Shown: piece after piece, positions 43,970 to 56,516 of the stretch
Numbering within the stretch: position 1 is the stretch's first letter
Layout of the letters: each line of letters begins with the position of its first letter
Source: Diplonema japonicum
Lineage: Eukaryota > Protista > Euglenozoa: Diplonemea
Reading direction: 5' to 3'
Assembly: GCA_964019335.1 (NCBI GenBank)
Contig: OZ025660.1
Coordinates: forward strand, 124,001 to 188,000
Length of the DNA: 64,000 bases
Made by a program: the position numbers and the translations under genes
Notes under the pieces: model-generated
Databases searched by the model: none
The model's input: only the letters and a program-made list of their open reading frames with translations
What the model was told of the DNA's origin: nothing

Positions 43970-45397
43970 TGTGTACACTTTTATCTTTTTTTTTTTTGTG
44001 GGGGAGCCCGCAAAAAAAAAAAAAAAGGGAAAAAATAGGAATGGGAGAGCAAAAAAAAAAAAAAAAAAGTTAAGGAGGAAGAGGAGGAGGAGGGCGAATT
44101 GAGTTACCTACTAAATGCTTTAAAACGAAAGAGAAACGTAAAAGAAGAAAAAGAAGAAAAAAGTGGGGCTTTGGTTGCAACACTATTTGGCGTTAAGTGT
44201 GCAGCGCTAAACCGCGAGAAAAAAAAAAGGAAATTTGGGTACGCCTCCTTGAAACGCTTTGGATTTTCTTTTTCTTTTTTTCTTTCCCATATCACTTTTT
44301 TTTTTCTTTTTTTTTTTCTCTCACCCCAGAATCCATGTGTGAAGGGGTCATTTAGTGGCCATTAGGGAGAAAATGGAGGACATAAAAAAAAAAAAAAAAA
44401 AGGTGGTAACAAAAAAAGTAAGAGAAAAAAAAGGTGGGGGGGGGATTCTTTTTTTTTTGTTCGAGCACAAAAAAACTACAAAAAAAAAACTACAAAAAAC
44501 ATTTTCTATTCAAAAAAAAAAAAAAAAAAAAAAAAAAAACCGTCAGGCGAGGGTAATGGGCAGGGCGTTGACACATCTGACTGAGAAGGTCGTTTTGCCC
44601 TTGACTTTTATCTAAGGGAGGGGAGGACCACAAATTACGGGATTCTTCTTTCATTCTTATGTTTTTCTTCGGTGATCTGAAGAGGTTCGCATCCCTTCAT
44701 GTGCGTCGGCATTATCAACCTTGAGAAGGAAAAGGGGAAAAATAATATAAGAGATAAAAGAGGCCAGGGTTGGTGGCCCTGCACAAGCACTGTAATCTTG
44801 AAATAAAAGTCGACACAGAACGTGTTGTTTAAAAAAGAAAGGGGGAAAAACCCGCACACATTTTTTTTTTTTTTTTTTTTTTTTGCTAACGTTCCCCCCT
44901 TTTTTTGTTGTTTAGACAAGTCAAAAGACTCGCTCTTTTTTGGAAAAAAAAAAAAAGAAAAAAAAAAAAAAACACAATTTTTAACCGTTCGCTTTAAAAA
45001 AAAAAAAAAAAAGAAAAAGAAAAAACTGGTGTGGAAAAAATTTAAAAAATCATCCAACCCCCTCCAGTCGTTCTAAAAAACGACGGAAGGGCTTCTTTGT
45101 AACACTACTCATCCTCTTCTTCTCAGGGATATTTCGGAACCCTAAGTTGCGAGGAAGGGCAAGGACAGGGCCCCAAGGGTGACCGGTCTTGGCATTCTCC
45201 CAAAGTACTTGAATCCTTGCCATTGTTGGACCCGGGTATTGAGGGCGGGGATTTTCTGTCGCCGTCCCTTGAAAAGTTGAGGATAAGCAGTTTTCTTTTT
45301 TTTTTTTTCCTCCCCCTACCAGTACAACAAAAAAAAAAAAAAAAAAACAAAAAAAAAAAGGAGAGACGGGAAAAAAAGGGAAAAAAAAAAAAAAAAT

Positions 45398-45683
45398 GAT
45401 AAATTTCGGTGTGCGGGTGGGTGCTCACCGTTCAGGGAGAAATTCATACTACCATTCTTTGCTGTGCACTTTTGAATACGTCTTAAGATGTATCGCCCCT
45501 TCCAGCCTTCTCTGTAGGGGTCCAGCCAAGGACTGTCGGGTCTGCTCATAGTCTACAGCGAGTCCCATCGTCGTGACGGACGTCAACGTCCTGCCTGTGT
45601 ACCATCTTAGGCTCTTCCCGATGCTCCGCTCGATTTTTCAACAGCTCCCCGTTGTGATCTCATCCCACGGGCTGGTGGTCAGG
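45398..45683 (-). pseudogene. Degenerate, internally deleted 3' fragment of an older relative of the adjacent LINE
   Basis: Matches 46140-46450 (AAGATGTATCGC, TCTGCTCATAGTCTA, GTACCATC, CTCATCCCA) and the 3' terminal motif at 45856-45909. Confidence 0.75.
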
Positions 45684-45902
45684 AAAAAAAAAAAAGAAAA
45701 AAGAAAAAAAAAAAAAAAAACTGCTGATTCTTCGGCGTCATTAGGCCCCTTCCCCGCCATTGCGGGGTTGTACCTTAAAAAACCCACAGTTTTGGTGACG
45801 CGGTGGATAAAGAGGAGAAAAAAAAAGTGAAACGAGGGGGAAATAAAAAAAACTCGATAAAATTTCAGTGTGCATGGGGGTGCTCACTGTTCAGGTAGAA
45901 AT

Positions 45903-48900
45903 TCACACTAATCGGTCACCGTTCTGCGGTTGCTGTCTGGTGCCTGCGGTGGCTGTTTGTCGCGATGAGATGGACGGCATCTGGGCGAGAAACACTGCTT
46001 GGAGTCGTGCTAGGTAGGGGGGGGTTTGGCTCGAGGAGAAGAGTGGTCTCCTGTCGTAGCCGTGTGCCGTCGGGCCCCCAAGATGTCGAAGGGTATGCAC
46101 CCTTGATTTGGCGTTGGCGGGGAAGGCTGACCTTCCACAGCGTGCTGAGCATTTCTGGATGCGACCCAAGATGTATCGCATCCTTGCGGCCTTCTCCGTG
46201 AGCAGGTCCTGATCGTCGAGGGGACCTATGAGTGACCGGCGGGTGGTCTGCTCATAGTCTATGGCGAGTTCCATTGTAGTGACGGAAGTTTTCTTCTTAC
46301 CATCGTACCATCGTAGGCCTCTTAGCCACTTGAGGACGTTCTTCAGATGAAAGGTCAGGACCGCGCCTGACGCCCCGTTCGCCTTCAGCAACGCTTCCGT
46401 CGGAACATCATGTTGCCTCCCTGTCGTTACCTCATCCCAAGGGTTGGAGGTGAGCACTCTCTTGCTTTTTTCCGCTGCTCTGGCGTCACGGACCGTCACT
46501 ACTTTCAGGAGGTATTGTTGCACCATCCTGGCACGTTCTTTCCCTGCTTTGTCGGCTCCTCTTGGGACTATCCCGTGAAGGGCTGTGGCAGCTGGGAGGC
46601 CTTCTCGCTTCACCTCTGCGTATTGCTCGCTTTCCAACACACTCCTTGCCGGCTCGCACTCCCACAGTGCATGCTCCGTCATGCTGGTCGTTGTCTGGGA
46701 CCGGTGGTCGCAAACGTCACACGCTAATGCTGGGTTTTCCACACCAGGGCCATCCAATTTTCTCCCCCACACCCTCGGGTGAGTCGTGAACACTGCACCA
46801 CTAATGATGCGCCGCAACCTAAAGGACACCAACGGTCTCCGGGCCTGGAGCTTTTTCCACCAATAGTTCGTGGACGGGCACGCCCCTGCCTCCATCCCCA
46901 CGAAGGTTGATCTCTTCTCGATCAGCCTCTTCGCAACTGCCGGTCTGATGGCTTGCCTCACTTTGTGAGCCACCGCTGTATCTCCGTGCAGGTCGGCCAC
47001 AAAGGACCATCCCTTCCCCAGAAAGGGGAGCCATCTGTTCCGCAGGACTCCAATCGGACCCATCACCTCATCGTCATCACGGTCCTGGTATAGACCAATG
47101 ATCTCACCAACACGCTGCCGCAAACGCGGAGAGGCCAGGCTCTCCCGGACCAAGCTGTTTATCGTTCCGTAGATGACCTTCGACAGCGGATGTGCCGTAT
47201 GCCCTGGCAGCAGAACGCTCAGTACAGACACGGGGTTTCTCATCCCGAACTGGGGGCCCCACAGGGAGACCACTGCCGCTGTACACATCTTCTTCAGCTG
47301 GTCGTCCGAGGGTGCCGCATACGTTGCTCCGTACAGACACGACGGTAGCACAGTGCTCGTCAACATCGTCGACTTGTTCTCAAACCCTAGTGGCAAAGCT
47401 CCGAGACGGGTCAGGCGTCCCTCCGCTGCGTCCAGCTTGTCCAGCCTGTGATTCCCATCCATGCTCAGGTTCACGCCAAGTGATTTGATCTCCCCAGCTA
47501 CCTTGAACGAGGAACCGGTGCATACTAAACTAGGGCCGATCTCGTTTTTCGTCGAGAATCCCTGCGACTTCTTTCCGTTGAGGCGCATCTCTGTCCGGTC
47601 CCCGAACTCGATCACCTTGTTGGTCGCCCTTGTCAGGACCTCCGCTAAACGCGCCAGGAGGTACACGTCATCCGCGTACGAAAGTGACCAAGCTCCTGGT
47701 ACTTCCGTCATCACGCACTTCACCATCACCGACACCAAGGCGTTCACCATGATTACCGAGATGGGGCACCCTTGCAGGATACCATTCGTCACTCGGAACT
47801 CTGAGCCAACACCTGTCGGGAAACGGAATCGCCGCTTCAGGTTCGCATACATAGCTTTCAAGGGGGTCAGTATCCGCTCGTGCAAACCGAGATCTTGCAT
47901 CAGGCCAAAAGCTATCTGCTGTGGGACTCTGTCGAAGCACTTGACAAAATCCAACGCAATGCCGTTGAGAGGGGTGCCTGTCAACAGCGCCTCTTCGAGC
48001 TGTGTACTGAGCTCCATCAGAATGCTATCCGTGCCTCTCTTCGGTCTGAAACCATGCTGAGAGTCGTCGATCCACTTCTCTTGCCACAGCGTGATGTCAC
48101 GCAGCCTCGCACATGCCCACAGCCGATAGACCGCGCTCGTGACTGTGATCGGCCGATGGTTCAGAGGAGTCCTCTCGCCACCCTTCGGGATCAACGTCAC
48201 CAGCGCTGTCAGGAGTGCTTTCGGCCACTTCCCTGTCGTCTCGACTGCGTTGAACAGCTCGGCCCAAGCATCCAGCAGTACTACCGGCATGGCACGCAGT
48301 TCCGCCATCCTCCATCCATCCACCCCTGGAGCCGTTCTCGTTGACTTCTTGGCCAACACCGCCCTCAGATCCTCTCCTGTAAGTGGTCGAAGTTCCATCT
48401 TCTGCGACACGATGTACTCCCTGTACCTCGTTCTAAAGGCGTTGTACTGCGGCTCTCCTCGATCCCCACCGTACAGCTGAAAAATAGGGTCCCACTCCTT
48501 GTGCATCATCTTGTCCATCTCTTCAAGATCTGCCGTGAGAACCCCGTCGCCTTCCACTGCCTGCGTTGCTGATGCCGTTGTGCCCTTCACGAAGGCGGTC
48601 ACCCTCTTCCGTTCCTCCTTGAAGTGGGTGTTGATCCTCTCTTCATACTTCCTTTCACGCTCGACCCTCGCGTCCTTTGCGATCACTCGCGCCAGAGCGG
48701 ACAGGTCGTCGTCTAGGCGTTGAAGTTTGATGATAATCGTTTCAAAATTGTCCTTCATCAGACCCACCTCGCATCTCGGAAGCTGCGGGAGCTTCGCTAA
48801 CACCTTTATAGCATTCGCCCAAGTCCTCAGCAGCTGCTCCGGCATGTTGCTTGCTAGTCCCCTGTCGAGCAAATCTTGGACTCCCGCAAGGATGTGCGAG

Positions 48901-50021
48901 ACTTTCCGCTTCACCTCGGCGATGCACTTCTGCCAGCCCACTGCCGCACCTGTCGCCTCAACCACAGATTTCGCCGACAGGCACTTCTCCTTTGGTTGTC
49001 GCGCCACGCTTCTCCCGACGTAGGCCCTCCGTCTCACCGCTGGCAGGTCCCCGATGCAGCATTCCTCCGAAACGCACGCTAACGTACTATACGCATCGTC
49101 AATGTCGCCGTCGCCCAGCTTCTGCGCAAATCCCCCGACCTGTAGCAGCTCAGCAACTCGGTCACCATCAGCAGCTTCCATCGGCAACTCCCTCGGGACG
49201 AAGTATTTCCTCGTCATGCACTTGAGGGCCGGGATCCGGAGCTGGATTGAGAGGCAGCGGTGCTCGTTGGTGTAGACTGCGTCGTGTACCCACACCTTCT
49301 GTAGGCCTGCCGCCGCGATCGGGTTCAGCAGAACGTAGTCGATACGCGTCTTCGTGTTGGTGGCCTGCCTGGCAAAGGTGTGGCATGGTTCCACGCCATC
49401 CCTCTCGGCTTGCAGCATAGCAGCATCCACCCAATCGCTCCCCACCGCCTGTTGTAGCACTCCCGACTGTGACACCGCGGTGTTGAAATCGCCTGCCACG
49501 ATGATCGGTACGTCACCGAGGACGCATCTCATCTTGTTCAGGACCTTATCCAGCAGAGCCTCCCGCTGGTGCTTGCCGTGACCGCCCGAGTGACAGTAGA
49601 CTACGATCAGGTGTAACCACATATCTCGACCATCTAGGTTGATCATCGAGTGTACCCACCTGTTGTCGTCAGCTCTTCCTGCCGTATCTTTTACCAGAGC
49701 AGGTCGGCGTCGCTGCACCAGCAGACCCACCCCGCCCCTCTTCGCCTTATCAGGAGACGCGAGTCCATCGACCACGATGCCTGGTTGCGGGCTCCCCCAC
49801 AACGCGCGATACCTACCGTCGTCCTCGACGTGTCTCCCAACCATCTCCTGACCGTGCTCCGTCAGCTTCACTTCCTGCAGGCATGTCACGTCGCTCCCCA
49901 TAGCCAGGACCTCGTCAACCTTGTTGCTCAGGGACCCCACATTGAGTGTGGTGATTATGAGCGAATCGGGGTCCCTGGCGCCACCCGACTGGACGTCCCT
50001 CCGGACGTCCCAGTCCGCACT
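45903..50021 (-). CDS. LINE ORF2: AP endonuclease, reverse transcriptase and CCHC knuckle; no RNase H seen
   Basis: APE: TLNVGSL, LQEVK, GGVG, VY, GDFN, TRIDY, EH. RT: APGVDG, LIPK, RPIT, QHGFR, DFVKCFD, GILQGCPIS, YADD, KSLG. Knuckle: CDVC..HALWEC. The frame is open from just after the ORF1 UGA; the first ATG is only at 49901. Confidence 0.93.
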   Translation of the reverse strand, partial: SADWDVRRDVQSGGARDPDSLIITTLNVGSLSNKVDEVLAMGSDVTCLQEVKLTEHGQEMVGRHVEDDGRYRALWGSPQPGIVVDGLASPDKAKRGGVGLLVQRRRPALVKDTAGRADDNRWVHSMINLDGRDMWLHLIVVYCHSGGHGKHQREALLDKVLNKMRCVLGDVPIIVAGDFNTAVSQSGVLQQAVGSDWVDAAMLQAERDGVEPCHTFARQATNTKTRIDYVLLNPIAAAGLQKVWVHDAVYTNEHRCLSIQLRIPALKCMTRKYFVPRELPMEAADGDRVAELLQVGGFAQKLGDGDIDDAYSTLACVSEECCIGDLPAVRRRAYVGRSVARQPKEKCLSAKSVVEATGAAVGWQKCIAEVKRKVSHILAGVQDLLDRGLASNMPEQLLRTWANAIKVLAKLPQLPRCEVGLMKDNFETIIIKLQRLDDDLSALARVIAKDARVERERKYEERINTHFKEERKRVTAFVKGTTASATQAVEGDGVLTADLEEMDKMMHKEWDPIFQLYGGDRGEPQYNAFRTRYREYIVSQKMELRPLTGEDLRAVLAKKSTRTAPGVDGWRMAELRAMPVVLLDAWAELFNAVETTGKWPKALLTALVTLIPKGGERTPLNHRPITVTSAVYRLWACARLRDITLWQEKWIDDSQHGFRPKRGTDSILMELSTQLEEALLTGTPLNGIALDFVKCFDRVPQQIAFGLMQDLGLHERILTPLKAMYANLKRRFRFPTGVGSEFRVTNGILQGCPISVIMVNALVSVMVKCVMTEVPGAWSLSYADDVYLLARLAEVLTRATNKVIEFGDRTEMRLNGKKSQGFSTKNEIGPSLVCTGSSFKVAGEIKSLGVNLSMDGNHRLDKLDAAEGRLTRLGALPLGFENKSTMLTSTVLPSCLYGATYAAPSDDQLKKMCTAAVVSLWGPQFGMRNPVSVLSVLLPGHTAHPLSKVIYGTINSLVRESLASPRLRQRVGEIIGLYQDRDDDEVMGPIGVLRNRWLPFLGKGWSFVADLHGDTAVAHKVRQAIRPAVAKRLIEKRSTFVGMEAGACPSTNYWWKKLQARRPLVSFRLRRIISGAVFTTHPRVWGRKLDGPGVENPALACDVCDHRSQTTTSMTEHALWECEPARSVLESEQYAEVKREGLPAATALHGIVPRGADKAGKERARMVQQYLLKVVTVRDARAAEKSKRVLTSNPWDEVTTGRQHDVPTEALLKANGASGAVLTFHLKNVLKWLRGLRWYDGKKKTSVTTMELAIDYEQTTRRSLIGPLDDQDLLTEKAARMRYILGRIQKCSARCGRSAFPANAKSRVHTLRHLGGPTAHGYDRRPLFSSSQTPPYLARLQAVFLAQMPSISSRQTATAGTRQQPQNGDRLV

Positions 50022-52448
50022 TCAATTGAACTCGGTGTCGATGTCCTGGACAGCCAGGGGGGCGACCATCGGGGTTAGCTGCTGCACAGGTGTCCCGCCA
50101 GCTGCCGCGGCACAAAGGGGGGTGCTGTTGGGCATGATCATCGGCGTCATCTCCCTGCCTATTCCAGCGGTGGGGACAAGGGCACCTGAGGCCGCTTTCT
50201 TGTTGCCCGGCTCGTCCTCGCACTTCCTCTTCCCGCCTGTCTTCCTTGCCGCTTTCGCCTGTGCCTGCATCTCCTTTTGGATTGAGCCCACCGCCTGTGC
50301 GAGGTTGTTCACCGCAGAAGCAATCACGTCCAATTGCTCCAGACGTGCAGCCATCACTCCCATCTGCTCGCTCAGCGTTTGCACGTTCTGTTGCACGGAC
50401 ATCAACAGGTTGGCCGTCGACGCGTTCTTCCTCTCCATGTCGACGAGCCGGGCCTCCATGGTCTTCCTCTCCTGTTCGTTCTCCAGTTCCATCCTTCGCG
50501 CCCATTCCACGAACTGGTCGGTGGATGCGGTACCGGAGGTCGCAGATGGCGGTGCCGACGCCGGCGCCTGCATCACCGGTGTCGTCTGCGGTTTGCAGAA
50601 ATGCGTCGACTGCCCAGACTGCTGCGCTTGCCCAGGCTGCTGTGTCTCGGTCGCTTGTGGTTGAGGTTGAACTCCCGGTTGGGGTGCTGCAGTTGGATTC
50701 GGTGCTGGCCCAGCTTGTCTTCCCCACACGGCGTTCGGCGGCAAGGTGAAGACCGGCGTGTTCTTCACCTCCTTCTTCTTCTTATTCTTGCCCACCCTCA
50801 GCAGGTCCCCTTCCATCGGCTGGATGGCCCACCTCACTCCCTGGACTGTCAACACCAAGCTCCTTGGTTCGGTCGTCGCAGTCACCACCCACGTCTGTCT
50901 GCCACCATGCCTGTGCAGCTTCTTCCTCACCGTTGCTGGCCACCCGGAACGGCTCAGCTTGCCCTCGAGCTCCAGCCCGTTCATTGCTACCGGGACTCCC
51001 TGCACCTCGTAGTGGGCACCCTCCAGCAGGTCTACGGCGGTCGCTGTTGTCTTCAGATCTGCATGGCGGTCCTTGAGGATCTGCCTTGCGGTGTTGAGTC
51101 CGTCCTTTGGCACCCGAACGCCGTACGTGACAGTCTTGCTCGATTTTTTCAGGGTCAAACCCCATCCGCCGATGTCATTCTTCATCTTCAGGGCAACCTT
51201 CAGAGCCGTGTTCTCCAGCCAGATCACTGGCAGCAGGTCACGCGCCTCCCAAGGCTGCCTGACGAAAACGCCGTCCTCTCCGCTGCGCGTTAGGATCGCC
51301 TTAACGTCTTCCTTCTTTACCGTGATCGGTATTTCTAAAATACCGTCCTTCTTTCTGCCCCTCTTAGCGAGGTACCTCCCTGCGCGTTCTCTCAGCCATG
51401 CCAGCAGACGCGGCCGAGCTTTCTCGGCGTCCTGCGTCGTCTGCGCCAGGAGAAAAAGCTCTGCAGTGCACGTGGGCTCAGGCTCCTTCTCCTCCGTCTC
51501 CTCCATGTCCTCGACAGTCTCGCTAGTGGGCATTGCCGGGTCGCCGTGCCTTGCCGTCACGTACAGGCGCCTGTACGTCTTGCCACGTCCCTCGTTTGTC
51601 ACCAGGAGGACCTCCGCCATCTTACCGCAGAAGTAGGGTAATCGTCCCCAGGAAACCACCGTCGCCGCTGCCGTCCCCTTCAGCCACTCTGCCGCCTGTC
51701 GCTCATCACCCTGCGGCACCAGGTACACCGCGCGCTCTTGCACCGTCTCCGGGCCCTGCCACTCCTGCACGTGGACCTGCCACTCATCTCCATCGAGGCA
51801 CCCCTCGACGGGCTTGCGTACTTCTTTCTTCTCGGGCTTCGAACCACCCTTGGCCACGCTGCGTAGAGGAATGGGGTATCTCGGCCTCGGCTCATACTCA
51901 TCTGCGTCCGGCTTCCTCGCTCCTTCCTCCCTGCTGAGACACACGTAGTGGTCTCTCACATACCCTAGCCACAGCTCCTGTGTGGTCACCATCCCACCCA
52001 CCGGCCTGGAGGTGGTGCACACCAGGCGGTCGTCCCGGACCGCGTACACACAGATCACGCGGCCCATGGCTCGCGCCAGGGCATTCACCGCCATCCGGTC
52101 TCCCCACGTCCCCGGAAGAGCCACCAGCCGCTGGTACTCCTTCCACGCCCCCTCCGGGTCCTCTCCAATCATGAAGGACGAGAAGTCCTTCGTCGCCAGG
52201 TCTGCCGCCACTGCCTCCCTTAGGGCAGCGGCCCCGTCTCGCGCTCCGTGCACCGCGTATGAGGCTGCCTCATACAAGCAGTCTCCCGGCCTCCTCCCCA
52301 CGTCTTGGACCTTCCAGCCCATCCCCAGCCTGCCGGCTAGGTCGCCCACCGCTTCTCCTTGCCTGGTGGATTCGCCAGACCCCCCTTTTGGAGGAGCCTG
52401 CCCAGGAACCGCCCTCGTGGAGGCTCCACCTCGGCCTTTTGGTGGCAT
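50022..52448 (-). CDS. LINE ORF1 (808 aa) with an N-terminal OTU-like cysteine protease domain and a C-terminal coiled coil
   Basis: PGDCLYEAAS, LREAVA, GTWGDRMAVNALA, ICVY and LGYVRDHY form the OTU Cys/His boxes. Heptad region RRMELENE...EMQAQ. Start taken at MPPKG. Confidence 0.85.
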   Translation of the reverse strand: MPPKGRGGASTRAVPGQAPPKGGSGESTRQGEAVGDLAGRLGMGWKVQDVGRRPGDCLYEAASYAVHGARDGAAALREAVAADLATKDFSSFMIGEDPEGAWKEYQRLVALPGTWGDRMAVNALARAMGRVICVYAVRDDRLVCTTSRPVGGMVTTQELWLGYVRDHYVCLSREEGARKPDADEYEPRPRYPIPLRSVAKGGSKPEKKEVRKPVEGCLDGDEWQVHVQEWQGPETVQERAVYLVPQGDERQAAEWLKGTAAATVVSWGRLPYFCGKMAEVLLVTNEGRGKTYRRLYVTARHGDPAMPTSETVEDMEETEEKEPEPTCTAELFLLAQTTQDAEKARPRLLAWLRERAGRYLAKRGRKKDGILEIPITVKKEDVKAILTRSGEDGVFVRQPWEARDLLPVIWLENTALKVALKMKNDIGGWGLTLKKSSKTVTYGVRVPKDGLNTARQILKDRHADLKTTATAVDLLEGAHYEVQGVPVAMNGLELEGKLSRSGWPATVRKKLHRHGGRQTWVVTATTEPRSLVLTVQGVRWAIQPMEGDLLRVGKNKKKKEVKNTPVFTLPPNAVWGRQAGPAPNPTAAPQPGVQPQPQATETQQPGQAQQSGQSTHFCKPQTTPVMQAPASAPPSATSGTASTDQFVEWARRMELENEQERKTMEARLVDMERKNASTANLLMSVQQNVQTLSEQMGVMAARLEQLDVIASAVNNLAQAVGSIQKEMQAQAKAARKTGGKRKCEDEPGNKKAASGALVPTAGIGREMTPMIMPNSTPLCAAAAGGTPVQQLTPMVAPLAVQDIDTEFN

Positions 52449-53617
52449 TTTGTCTTCGCGACTTTTGATGTTAAAAACCCGAAACCCAGTGTTCCCTGGT
52501 ATTCCCATCCGGGTAAAAAAAAAAAAAAAAAACTCGCTATTTTCAACGTCAAGGTGACACAAGTCAAATGGCGCTCAGCACGACCACCACAGTCGGCTCC
52601 AGTGTACCATAAGTACATGTGGCGCATTTGCGATCCATGTTCCCCTGTTTTGTTGAGAAGCCTGCCCATGAATTGACACGCTTAAGGGACGTGGGGGCTT
52701 TTCGTCCGGTTTAGCGAATCTTGTCTGGCTGGCTCCAATCATTTGGAAAAATAAAAAAAACTGGTGGGCACTAAGGTAGCTCTCAGCTCCTGTTTCAGTA
52801 CTACTTTATTTTGTGGTCACAACTACACTAGCCCCCCCCCCCCCCCCTGGTGGGGAAGAATTTTGAATTGAGGGAGTTTTATTCTCTTTCCTTTTCTCTT
52901 TTTTTTTTTTCTTTCTTTTAACTAGTAGAATTCATTTACACAAAAAGTATGGGGAAAAAAACAAATCCCACCAAGAAAAAAAAAAAGAAAAAAAATAAGA
53001 GGATCATCTTTCTTTTTTTTTTTTATATTTTTTTTTTGTTTTGTTATGTTTTTTTTTTTTTTTTGTGTTTTCTTTTCTTTCTCTTTCTTTCTTCTTTCTT
53101 TCTTTTTCTTTAAAATTCCCTTTTTTTTTTGTGAGATTAATAAAATTAGAATAGAATCGGCGTGGTATTTAGTGGGGTCCTTCGTTGAAGAATTAGGGAA
53201 AGGTCCCCCCCCGTCTTATTTTTTTTTCTTTTTTTTTTTTTTTTTAAATCTTGTTCTGTAAAAAGAGAGCAGACGGGGGGCACCAGAAAGAAGGAACAAG
53301 ATATCACCATTTGAGATTCTACGAGAAAAGAAATATAGTAAAATAGACTCCAATCATCTCTCGTTTTCTTTTGATACTCCGCTGTTCGTAGAAATTGCTT
53401 CAGCAGGAGTGTCCGTATCAGGAAGCCTGCATTTTAGTGGACTAGAAAAATGCTGCTTCTTGTTTTAGCTTGGTTTAGAATTAGTTCCTTTAGTGCGGGT
53501 CACTTTGCGAGGCAAACAAACCGGTCCCCTGGAACCTTGTTCTTTAGAAAGAACAGAAAAAAAAAAAGTGTGAAAAAAGCAAATTTGTGAAGTAGTGTGA
53601 GGGTGGGGGAAACGGGG

Positions 53618-54511: not shown

Positions 54512-55635
54512 TCATCTAGTGTTTGATCCCTTCTGTCGTGGTAGTGCCTTAGGCCCGTCGTGGTATCTCATCAGCAGCTTGGGCGTGAAACCGACTAGCG
54601 AGTTGTTGAGGATGCAATGAGTTCGCAGTTGCTCCTCTAGGATCGGGTGGGTTGCCTTCGGGGACGCGAAGACTGGACGAGTGGAGTATTGGCTGTGGAG
54701 CCCCAGAGTACGCAGTGAGTGCACTGACTTCATAGTTTCTGCTGGAATCAGGTGATTCCCAGTTCCTGTTCTGTGTGCCCTGTCCAGGACGTTGAGGATT
54801 CTTCCGATTTTCCTAGCCCAGCATGCCAGGTCTTCACCACCCATGTGGATTCTCTCCGTTGCTATGAAGTCGACAGCAAGCTCCGCCTTGGACACTTGCC
54901 CTGCATCCTTGCACTCAGCCATTTGAGGACAAACGGGATCAGCCCCGGGAAGTACTTCTTCCCCAGCCCGTGCTTGTGATACCAAATGAGGGGTTTCGGT
55001 TCTAATAGGTTTCCCGGTTGGAATGGTCTTTTCCAGAAGTGTAGATTATCGTATCTGACTTGCTTCTCGGCGTGCAGGCTCTCGAGTTTCCCCGCAATTT
55101 CCGCAAACATCAGGTGTAGTTCCTTGACACTTGTCAGGCTTATGTCCATATCAGAGGTAATGCCGTGTAGACGGGCGCAGCTTGGCCAGCTGACGTGGTC
55201 TTGCACCAGCCGAATGTGGTCAGTGTTGGCCGTTCTGCAGTCGGCGTGCGCCGGGCATTGCCAGATCGTATGCTGTAGTAGGGAGCTGGTCCCGTTCCCA
55301 ATGTTATATGGTGTGCCACACCCCAGGCATTTCGTATGTGAGCCGTTCATGTCGCCGTAAGCTCTGGGGTGTAGGGGAAGCATCGCGCCCGCAATGGCAC
55401 AAAGTATCCTCCTTGCTTTCTGTGGGTTGGTGGTCGTCACCTCGTTGTGGAGGAAGTTCGTTTTCTCCTCGTCAATGCCTGTTTCGACCCCCTGGTAGGT
55501 GTCTCGCTCTTCGGCCAGATCTTCACGTAGTTTGGCTTTCAGCAGCGTCCTGATCTCGTGTTTCAGGAGCTGTTTGCCTTGCGGTAGTATCTTCGTCTGG
55601 AAGTCCTTCCACCTTGACCCTATTTCTCGGTGCCA
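54512..55635 (-). pseudogene. 5'-truncated, frameshifted C-terminal fragment of a second related LINE family
   Basis: CLGC..QHTIWQC, RLHGI, S.AELAVDF, VHSLRTLG and RPVF parallel the ORF2 motifs HALWEC, ALHGI, MELAIDY, VHTLRHLG and RPLF, spread over two frames. Confidence 0.82.
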
Positions 55636-56516
55636 CAAACCAAATAAAAGAGGGGGGGGGGGGGGGGGTGGGAGGGCGAAGTTGTAACCCCCTTAAGGAC
55701 CAAAAAAGAAGGGGGGGAAAAAATAGTCGCCATTTGTACTTTTGTTTTCGCAAGCACATTATTTATTTTTTTTTTTTCCGTCATTCTTTTTTTTCTTTCC
55801 CATTTCATGAAAACGAGGTTTTACGGACCCTTGGGTTTTAACAAAAAAAAAAAAAAAAAAAAAAAAAGCACCTGATTTCTCACCCGCCTCTTCCACTTCT
55901 TTGTTAGTTGCTTGTACGCCAGGCAGGTTTATAAGCAACCAAAGTCTTTTCCCCCTTTTCATAAATTTTCATAAAGCATCTCAAGACTTTTGTTGATATA
56001 CTGAAGGGAGAACAGGATCAATATGGAAGAAGAAAAAAAAAAAGGAAGTCCTTTTCAAGAAGGGGGGGCCCTATTCCAATTTTTTCCCCCCTCATTTCCA
56101 ACCTAAACAAGAGATAGACGAAAAGAAAATTCAGACTTTCTTTTTTTTTTTTTTAAAAAAAGATAGAAAGGTACCTGCGTCAATAGACGAATACGTTCGT
56201 GGGGGAGGAAAAAAAAAAAGAAAGAACAAAAAAAAAAAAGAAAGTTCACCGATGCGGCTTAGAAAAGAAAAAAAATTACAAAGAATGGCGCGAAAAACCA
56301 AAGTAAATAGTGTCTTAGAAGAGAGGGGTAGCATCACAAGAAATCTGGTAGGGATTAATGAACCTTTTTCTGTTGTCATAAATCGATGTTGATCGTGGAG
56401 AAGGGGGGGGGGGGGGGGGGGCTTTCTAGGTTAAAGAAAAAAGAGGGGAAAAAAAAAGAAAAAGGTTCTCACCCGCCATTCATGTTTTTTTTTTCTTTTT
56501 TTTTTTCATCTTTCTT

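Follow-up and report, generated by a model that had tools for sequence, protein, structure and literature searches.

How does a retrotransposon obtain its reverse transcriptase when the frame that encodes it lies behind a stop codon and has no usable AUG? The question is raised by an intact APE-type non-long-terminal-repeat (non-LTR) retrotransposon, or long interspersed nuclear element (LINE), on the minus strand of a 64,000-nucleotide stretch of the marine diplonemid Diplonema japonicum (contig OZ025660.1, positions 124,001 to 188,000; hereafter the window). Its two open reading frames (ORF1 and ORF2) lie in one frame across a single UGA. We find that this is a real, conserved recoding junction. 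The best explanation is that the ORF2 protein (ORF2p) would be made by readthrough of the UGA, a reading to which we give about an even chance. The likelihoods attached here to this and to three other explanations express our judgement and were not computed.

The ORF1 frame is open from 52574 to 50025 and ends in TTC AAT followed by TGA (50024-50022). The same frame then stays open for 1372 codons (50021-45906) and runs into the APE domain, as the initial annotation of the window had described. Its other structural statements stood as well: a first ATG at 49901, downstream of the TLNV strand (codon 41 versus codons 25-28), a stem of 12 bp with one bulge and a GGAG loop six nucleotides after the UGA, and a perfect 10-bp stem behind it. 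The length of ~2181 amino acids that it gave for an ORF1-ORF2 fusion holds from the ATG at 52448; an earlier ATG, at 52508, gives 2201. The junction is laid out as follows.

50022..50024, minus strand: the single in-frame UGA, in the context AAU UGA AGU
50016..50021, minus strand: spacer of 6 nt between the stop and stem 1
49987..50015, minus strand: stem 1, 12 bp with one bulge and a GGAG loop, beginning 6 nt past the UGA
49977..49985, minus strand: Gly-Gly-Ala, codons 13-15, found in each of the clade's three families; candidate site of OTU cleavage
49929..49977, minus strand: stem 2, a perfect 10-bp stem (49977-49968 with 49938-49929) with a 29-nt loop
49899..49901, minus strand: the earliest ATG in the ORF2 frame, at codon 41 and downstream of TLNV

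TGA is an ordinary stop in this host, since it closes five of 12 further long ORFs that were checked, among them ORF2; reassignment of UGA was rejected on these grounds. The UGA and both stems appear without a listed difference in contigs of five sequencing runs from four studies (X1, X2, X6, X7 and X12), one of which may be the source of the window itself. In a narrow contig listing around the junction, eight places differ and none is at the stop. The initial annotation would have been undone by sense codons in sister copies, which would have marked the UGA as a private nonsense mutation. No such codon was found. The stop is fixed in the contigs seen, and a sister ORF1, P0024 (47% identical; not assigned to family B or C, see below), ends in DEFN, with EFN at the same position as in the DTEFN of the window copy. 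The UGA is therefore not a private nonsense mutation, as far as can be shown by contigs, which lose rare variants and so limit the evidence for fixation. Upstream of the stop, at 50077, the window copy differs by a 3-nt indel from the contigs, which carry three extra bases in all runs covering the place well; it is thus not simply their consensus. What it is short of there is one Ala codon in a poly-Ala run, present in the contigs of the same five runs. Run X11 spans just 49500-49971. Run X13, whose RNA origin is a guess, holds more diverged variants, with 5-10 bases per 118 different in the ORF1 tail and codons 11-12 without a listed change; it is uninformative at the stop position, since the listing leaves out differences close to the ends of records.

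The remaining parts of the element are the following.

50025..52508, minus strand: ORF1, 828 amino acids from the ATG at 52508 or 808 from the ATG at 52448, with an OTU domain, a folded mixed alpha/beta core and a low-complexity tail ending DTEFN
51954..52286, minus strand: OTU-like cysteine protease domain (Pfam PF02338, E 7e-7), with Cys57 and His167 (808-residue numbering) in GDC and HY motifs
45903..50021, minus strand: ORF2, 1372 codons and its own TGA
49320..49949, minus strand: APE endonuclease domain (PF03372, Exo_endo_phos, E 3e-11), with TLNV, LQEV, GDFN, RIDY and NEHR all found
47469..48191, minus strand: reverse transcriptase (RT) domain (PF00078, RVT_1, E 3e-19), with YADD
46656..46721, minus strand: C-terminal Cys/His motif CDVCDH...HALWEC, which we take to be a zinc knuckle

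ORF2 thus carries the APE endonuclease and the reverse transcriptase that define an APE-type non-LTR retrotransposon. In the Ingi clade of LINEs an RNase H domain follows RT; no RNase H family was matched in the element by Pfam at E up to 0.1. The predicted model of the ORF1 OTU region resembles OTUD3, DUBA and OTUD1 (E 2e-7 to 1e-6) and, with an OTU fold and both the catalytic Cys and His in place, ORF1 carries a putative deubiquitinase-like protease. ORF1 homologues were found in D. japonicum, D. papillatum and ENA/Logan records, with 27 hits in a full HMMER search, unlike a word-index search, which returned zero matches. In a structure atlas, the ORF1 core gave weak RRM-like leads only (scores <0.8) and ORF2 matched only unnamed RT clusters.

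The C-terminal part of ORF2 is identical at 830 of 831 and 866 of 868 residues to two D. japonicum transcript proteins, P0058 and P0151, whose records end short of the junction. The family is therefore transcribed. The listing of sequencing runs that match the element names no RNA run, which carries no weight as to expression. ORF2 could be carried on an mRNA of its own, formed at the junction through cis-splicing, editing or spliced-leader trans-splicing; alternatively, the UGA could encode selenocysteine. Nearly all Diplonema mRNAs are trans-spliced (PMC10161547), and stems just 3′ of a UGA function in selenocysteine recoding. Trans-splicing, however, supplies no AUG ahead of TLNV. The longest pyrimidine run in 49900-50200 has 9 nt (at 50122), as compared to 18 nt upstream of ORF1, and splicing or editing joints are not seen in the contigs across the junction. 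No selenocysteine insertion sequence (SECIS) or other Rfam family came near its gathering score over 45000-53200 (11 weak matches, none of them SECIS; divergent forms could escape). We consider this group of explanations highly improbable.

The D. japonicum transcriptome proteins include two sister families, B (P0001, with 71% identity over the first query) and C (P0002/P0004, with 53%). The window family and these two group as a single branch (support 1.0) within the diplonemid APE-RT elements, in a tree of search hits only, without named clade references. The DNA of family B is known from contigs aligning at 49762-49986 plus a 30-base loose end; other loose ends translate to P0001. In stem 1 of family B, the GGAG loop and three inner pairs are kept, and the outer arms differ at 11 of 18 positions yet form nine Watson-Crick pairs (sense strand, by eye). 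The 3′ arm of stem 2 is unchanged at four of four fourfold sites, while 11 of 18 have changed in conserved codons nearby (P about 0.02), and nine positions of its 5′ arm appear unchanged from difference counts and the protein. The covariation that the initial annotation had proposed to look for in both stems is hence seen in stem 1, while stem 2 is conserved. This is good evidence, from two families only, of selection acting on the RNA structure. The junction has a conserved 3′ structure near the stop, as structure-stimulated readthrough requires.

In windows selected around them, the stems also exceed local chance, with z values of -3.55 and -3.95 (1 of 200 shuffles in either case). By energy, the 45-nt window of stem 1 ranks third of 723 along the element, and stem 2 is the sole perfect 10-bp stem with a loop of at most 40 nt in 6606 nt. 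The 141-nt junction region as a whole is unexceptional (z -1.42, 19 of 200 shuffles). A 5-bp pseudoknot, seen by eye, that would pair the linker with loop 2 was dropped, being broken in family B.

The region following the stop bears on how ORF2 begins. No in-frame AUG precedes codon 41, the only other ATG in 50064-49895 being out of frame at 49942. Codons 13-40 are nonetheless identical to P0001 at 26 of 28 positions, as compared to 179 of 220 in the remaining APE domain. This near-identity ahead of the first AUG indicates that the stretch is likely translated and belongs to the protein.

Another idea is that the family is non-autonomous, having lost its ORF2 start and being copied by the ORF2p of family B, so that the junction would have no decoding role. 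Family B is indeed found in the same runs and has an AUG. Against this, ORF2 is open over its 1372 codons, retains all APE and RT motifs and shows domain-wise conservation, and the diverged X13 variant is without a listed change at codons 11-12, so that the state without AUG looks not recent. Non-autonomy is in our opinion quite improbable.

Readthrough would account for the junction in the following way. Most ribosomes would stop at the UGA and release the ORF1 protein. A few would read through it into the endonuclease-reverse transcriptase, and the hairpin 6 nt downstream is predicted to help. The OTU protease that the element itself encodes might then cleave the rare fusion at Gly-Gly/Ala (codons 13-15) and so free ORF2p. 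The stop and hairpin would thereby do the job of the 2A peptides in related diplonemid elements. A precedent for the hexanucleotide exists, since an endogenous retrovirus of a frog is listed with UGAAGU at its gag-pol junction (PMC13517186).

Relatives of the element place the junction in a lineage where recoding within one frame is common. Among 95 relatives examined, 54 match the APE profile. In 31 of them the start of APE is intact, and an upstream 2A-like motif is found in 17 of these 31 (two weak). In a further 23 the called protein begins within APE; since several of these come from 2A families, they were not taken as lacking an AUG. In P0103 of D. papillatum, a single chain holds an ORF1 core (E 4e-12 in one comparison), then two 2A motifs and then APE-RT, and P0028 runs from ORF1 into APE via sense codons, with two Met just ahead of APE. 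The D. papillatum models P0095, P0098, P0107 and their kin (ORF1-APE without 2A) do not enter the counts of frame and Gly-Gly, because their joins differ and look like predicted introns. Readthrough is plausible in such a setting, but the shared frame may be inherited. 2A-like motifs before APE are numerous in diplonemid LINEs (proteins P0059-P0142) and stand in tandem in P0103 and P0110; the accessible passages of the 2A papers make no mention of diplonemids. Searches for the relatives' loci in metagenome and prokaryote collections returned only bacterial exonuclease-III-like genes (12 loci), and a search of viral contigs none among 60 candidates.

OTU enzymes cleave after Gly-Gly. A Gly-Gly lies within 20 residues before APE in five of eight lineages without 2A, as compared to 17-24% of background windows (P 0.004-0.02, post hoc; P0126, P0083 and P0130, with at most five residues before APE, are omitted). 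A complex prediction of OTU with the junction peptide was uninformative (score 0.01). The Gly-Gly/Ala sequence as an OTU cleavage site is a lead rather than a result. The OTU module itself moves within the element: in P0060, P0068, P0091 and P0113 it stands directly before APE in the ORF2 chain and not at the start of ORF1. The ORF1 homologues P0027, P0031 and P0053 have an extra N-terminal domain ahead of OTU, RNase H-like by eye. A distant single-ORF relative (P0012, P0015, P0017) carries what we presume to be a ubiquitin-specific-protease (USP)-like motif, beside which LKGG is found shortly before APE; this would be a second deubiquitinase-like protease in the group.

Several observations weigh against readthrough and its proposed sequel. 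In-frame Met codons are found where reinitiation would need them, at codon 12 in family B (P0001, MGGA) and at codon 11 in family C (P0002/P0004, MSGGA). Stem 2 begins about 9-14 nt past these sister Met codons, like a downstream initiation enhancer. The stop context UGA-AGU is not of the type II leaky kind and falls outside the leaky contexts UGA-CUA/CGG, UAG-CAA-UUA and UAG-G. Stem 1 starts at +10 (6-nt spacer) versus +12 (8-nt spacer) in viral signals, and shortening the spacer of Moloney murine leukaemia virus (MoMLV) by one codon impairs readthrough. The covariation rests on two families; stem 1 of family B has a 2x2 mismatch replacing two inner pairs of the window copy, and the loose end of family B stops 6 bases before the stop position, so that its stop and frame are unseen. 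Among the relatives, P0103 is a gene model, P0028 is a single truncated record, and three OTU-APE proteins (P0060, P0068 and P0113) are without Gly-Gly. Finally, the UGA of Candida albicans Tca2, with a predicted 3′ pseudoknot, failed to direct readthrough in a reporter (PMC2194720), a caution that such a layout can mislead.

The sister Met codons fit termination-reinitiation as in L1 or SART1, with restart near codons 11-12. The sisters would use AUG, and the window family would have lost it and would restart independently of AUG (at codon 11 or 12, AGG 8 or 16, AUA 22 or AUC 23), stem 1 throttling the process and stem 2 positioning the ribosome. Near-cognate codons are indeed available in frame, and the shared frame could descend from an ancestor with a single ORF and 2A. 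AUG-independent translation of ORF2 has been reported for L1 (PMC11485995), and SART1 requires a structure downstream of its junction (PMC5972666). However, codons 11 and 12 of the window copy are CAG and UCG, each two mismatches from AUG, and AUA 22 is altered in family B and in one X13 contig (single contig, depth 8). There is no overlapping stop-start, and no AUG overlaps or adjoins the UGA. Moreover, family B has its AUG buried in the 3′ arm of stem 1, which there has 9 bp, and the 5′ arm before it already holds an out-of-frame AUG; scanning reinitiation would be ill served by such an arrangement. We regard reinitiation as a serious alternative, of somewhat less than even probability.

Overall, we continue to favor readthrough. 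The proposal of the initial annotation, a polyprotein made by leaky UGA decoding, gains from a stop fixed in the contigs seen and from stems conserved in a sister family; the Met at codon 11 or 12 in both closest sister families, which fits reinitiation, counts on the other side. A more complete scenario can be drawn, in which the LINE would be expressed like an alphavirus: hairpin-stimulated readthrough would give an ORF1-ORF2 polyprotein, its own OTU would cut it at Gly-Gly/Ala, this arrangement would have replaced 2A StopGo within one diplonemid lineage, and the ORF2 AUG would have been lost as unneeded. Taken as a whole, this scenario is doubtful.

The way in which LINEs produce ORF2p is still described as unsettled (PMC3894237, PMC11485995). 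The junction region is common to three sister families, some with and some without AUG (hairpins were seen in two), and their relatives use 2A, which makes them a compact test of readthrough versus reinitiation; genetic tractability has been reported for a related diplonemid species. If true, processing of a LINE polyprotein would run counter to the statement that the products of APE-type ORFs stay unprocessed (PMC3894237). A literature search, with most subscription papers outside its reach, found neither a tested readthrough in any LINE nor a paper on OTU-bearing LINEs. It found no paper on diplonemid LINE junctions either, the text passages of PMC10161547 and a word search of its supplement included. 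What is new here is the covarying hairpin, the apparent swap with 2A and the possible Gly-Gly/Ala cleavage site for the element's OTU.

The surroundings of the element complete the description. Its ends carry a possible target-site duplication:

52527..52536, minus strand: 5′ copy, a 10-nt match of low complexity running into a T tract
45847..45856, minus strand: 3′ copy, a 10-nt low-complexity match

At either end the element abuts one and the same short motif, with a T tract after it, which suggests insertion at T-rich sites. Degenerate 3′ fragments of related elements lie on either side of the intact copy, on the minus strand (45424-45670 and 54865-55692), with 44-54% and 26% identity to the ORF2 C-terminus.

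Among known systems, the closest precedent is non-LTR group 3 of Paramecium tetraurelia (Guerin et al. 2017, PMC5405496), an APE-RT LINE with ORF1 and ORF2 in the same frame for which readthrough of the ORF1 stop was proposed from sequence. The novelty implied by the initial annotation is lowered to that extent. The Paramecium group belongs to a ciliate clade, and the accessible passages mention neither a 3′ hairpin, an OTU domain, 2A relatives nor an experiment.

SART1 coupling and L1 reinitiation (PMC5972666, PMC11485995) also concern bicistronic LINEs, with a structure downstream of the junction in SART1 and an ORF2 for which AUG is not needed in L1. Unlike them, the present element has no overlapping UAAUG and no in-frame AUG ahead of the first APE strand. 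Tca2 (PMC2194720) shares a gag-UGA-pol arrangement in frame with a predicted 3′ structure, but is an LTR element.

Opal readthrough in alphaviruses and gag-pol readthrough in MoMLV (PMC13517186) share the succession of stop, short spacer and 3′ structure. The alphaviral UGA is followed, seven codons on, by a protease site that has Gly at P2 (PMC13517186). The structures of MoMLV, Venezuelan equine encephalitis virus (VEEV) and Colorado tick fever virus (CTFV) begin at +12. The present junction differs in having UGA-A in place of UGA-C or UAG-G, a start at +10, and two simple hairpins with no pseudoknot found.

The Ingi clade combines a 2A peptide before APE with a reported absence of ORF1 (PMC3708506), a combination found in many of the diplonemid relatives. 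The window element, by contrast, has no NPGP motif at the junction, a long ORF1 of 808-828 amino acids, a real stop and no Pfam RNase H match. With Ingi/L1Tc of trypanosomes and other 2A-bearing LINEs (PMC3708506, PMC3894237) it shares the euglenozoan host group and a recoding site just before APE, the very place where many diplonemid relatives carry 2A.

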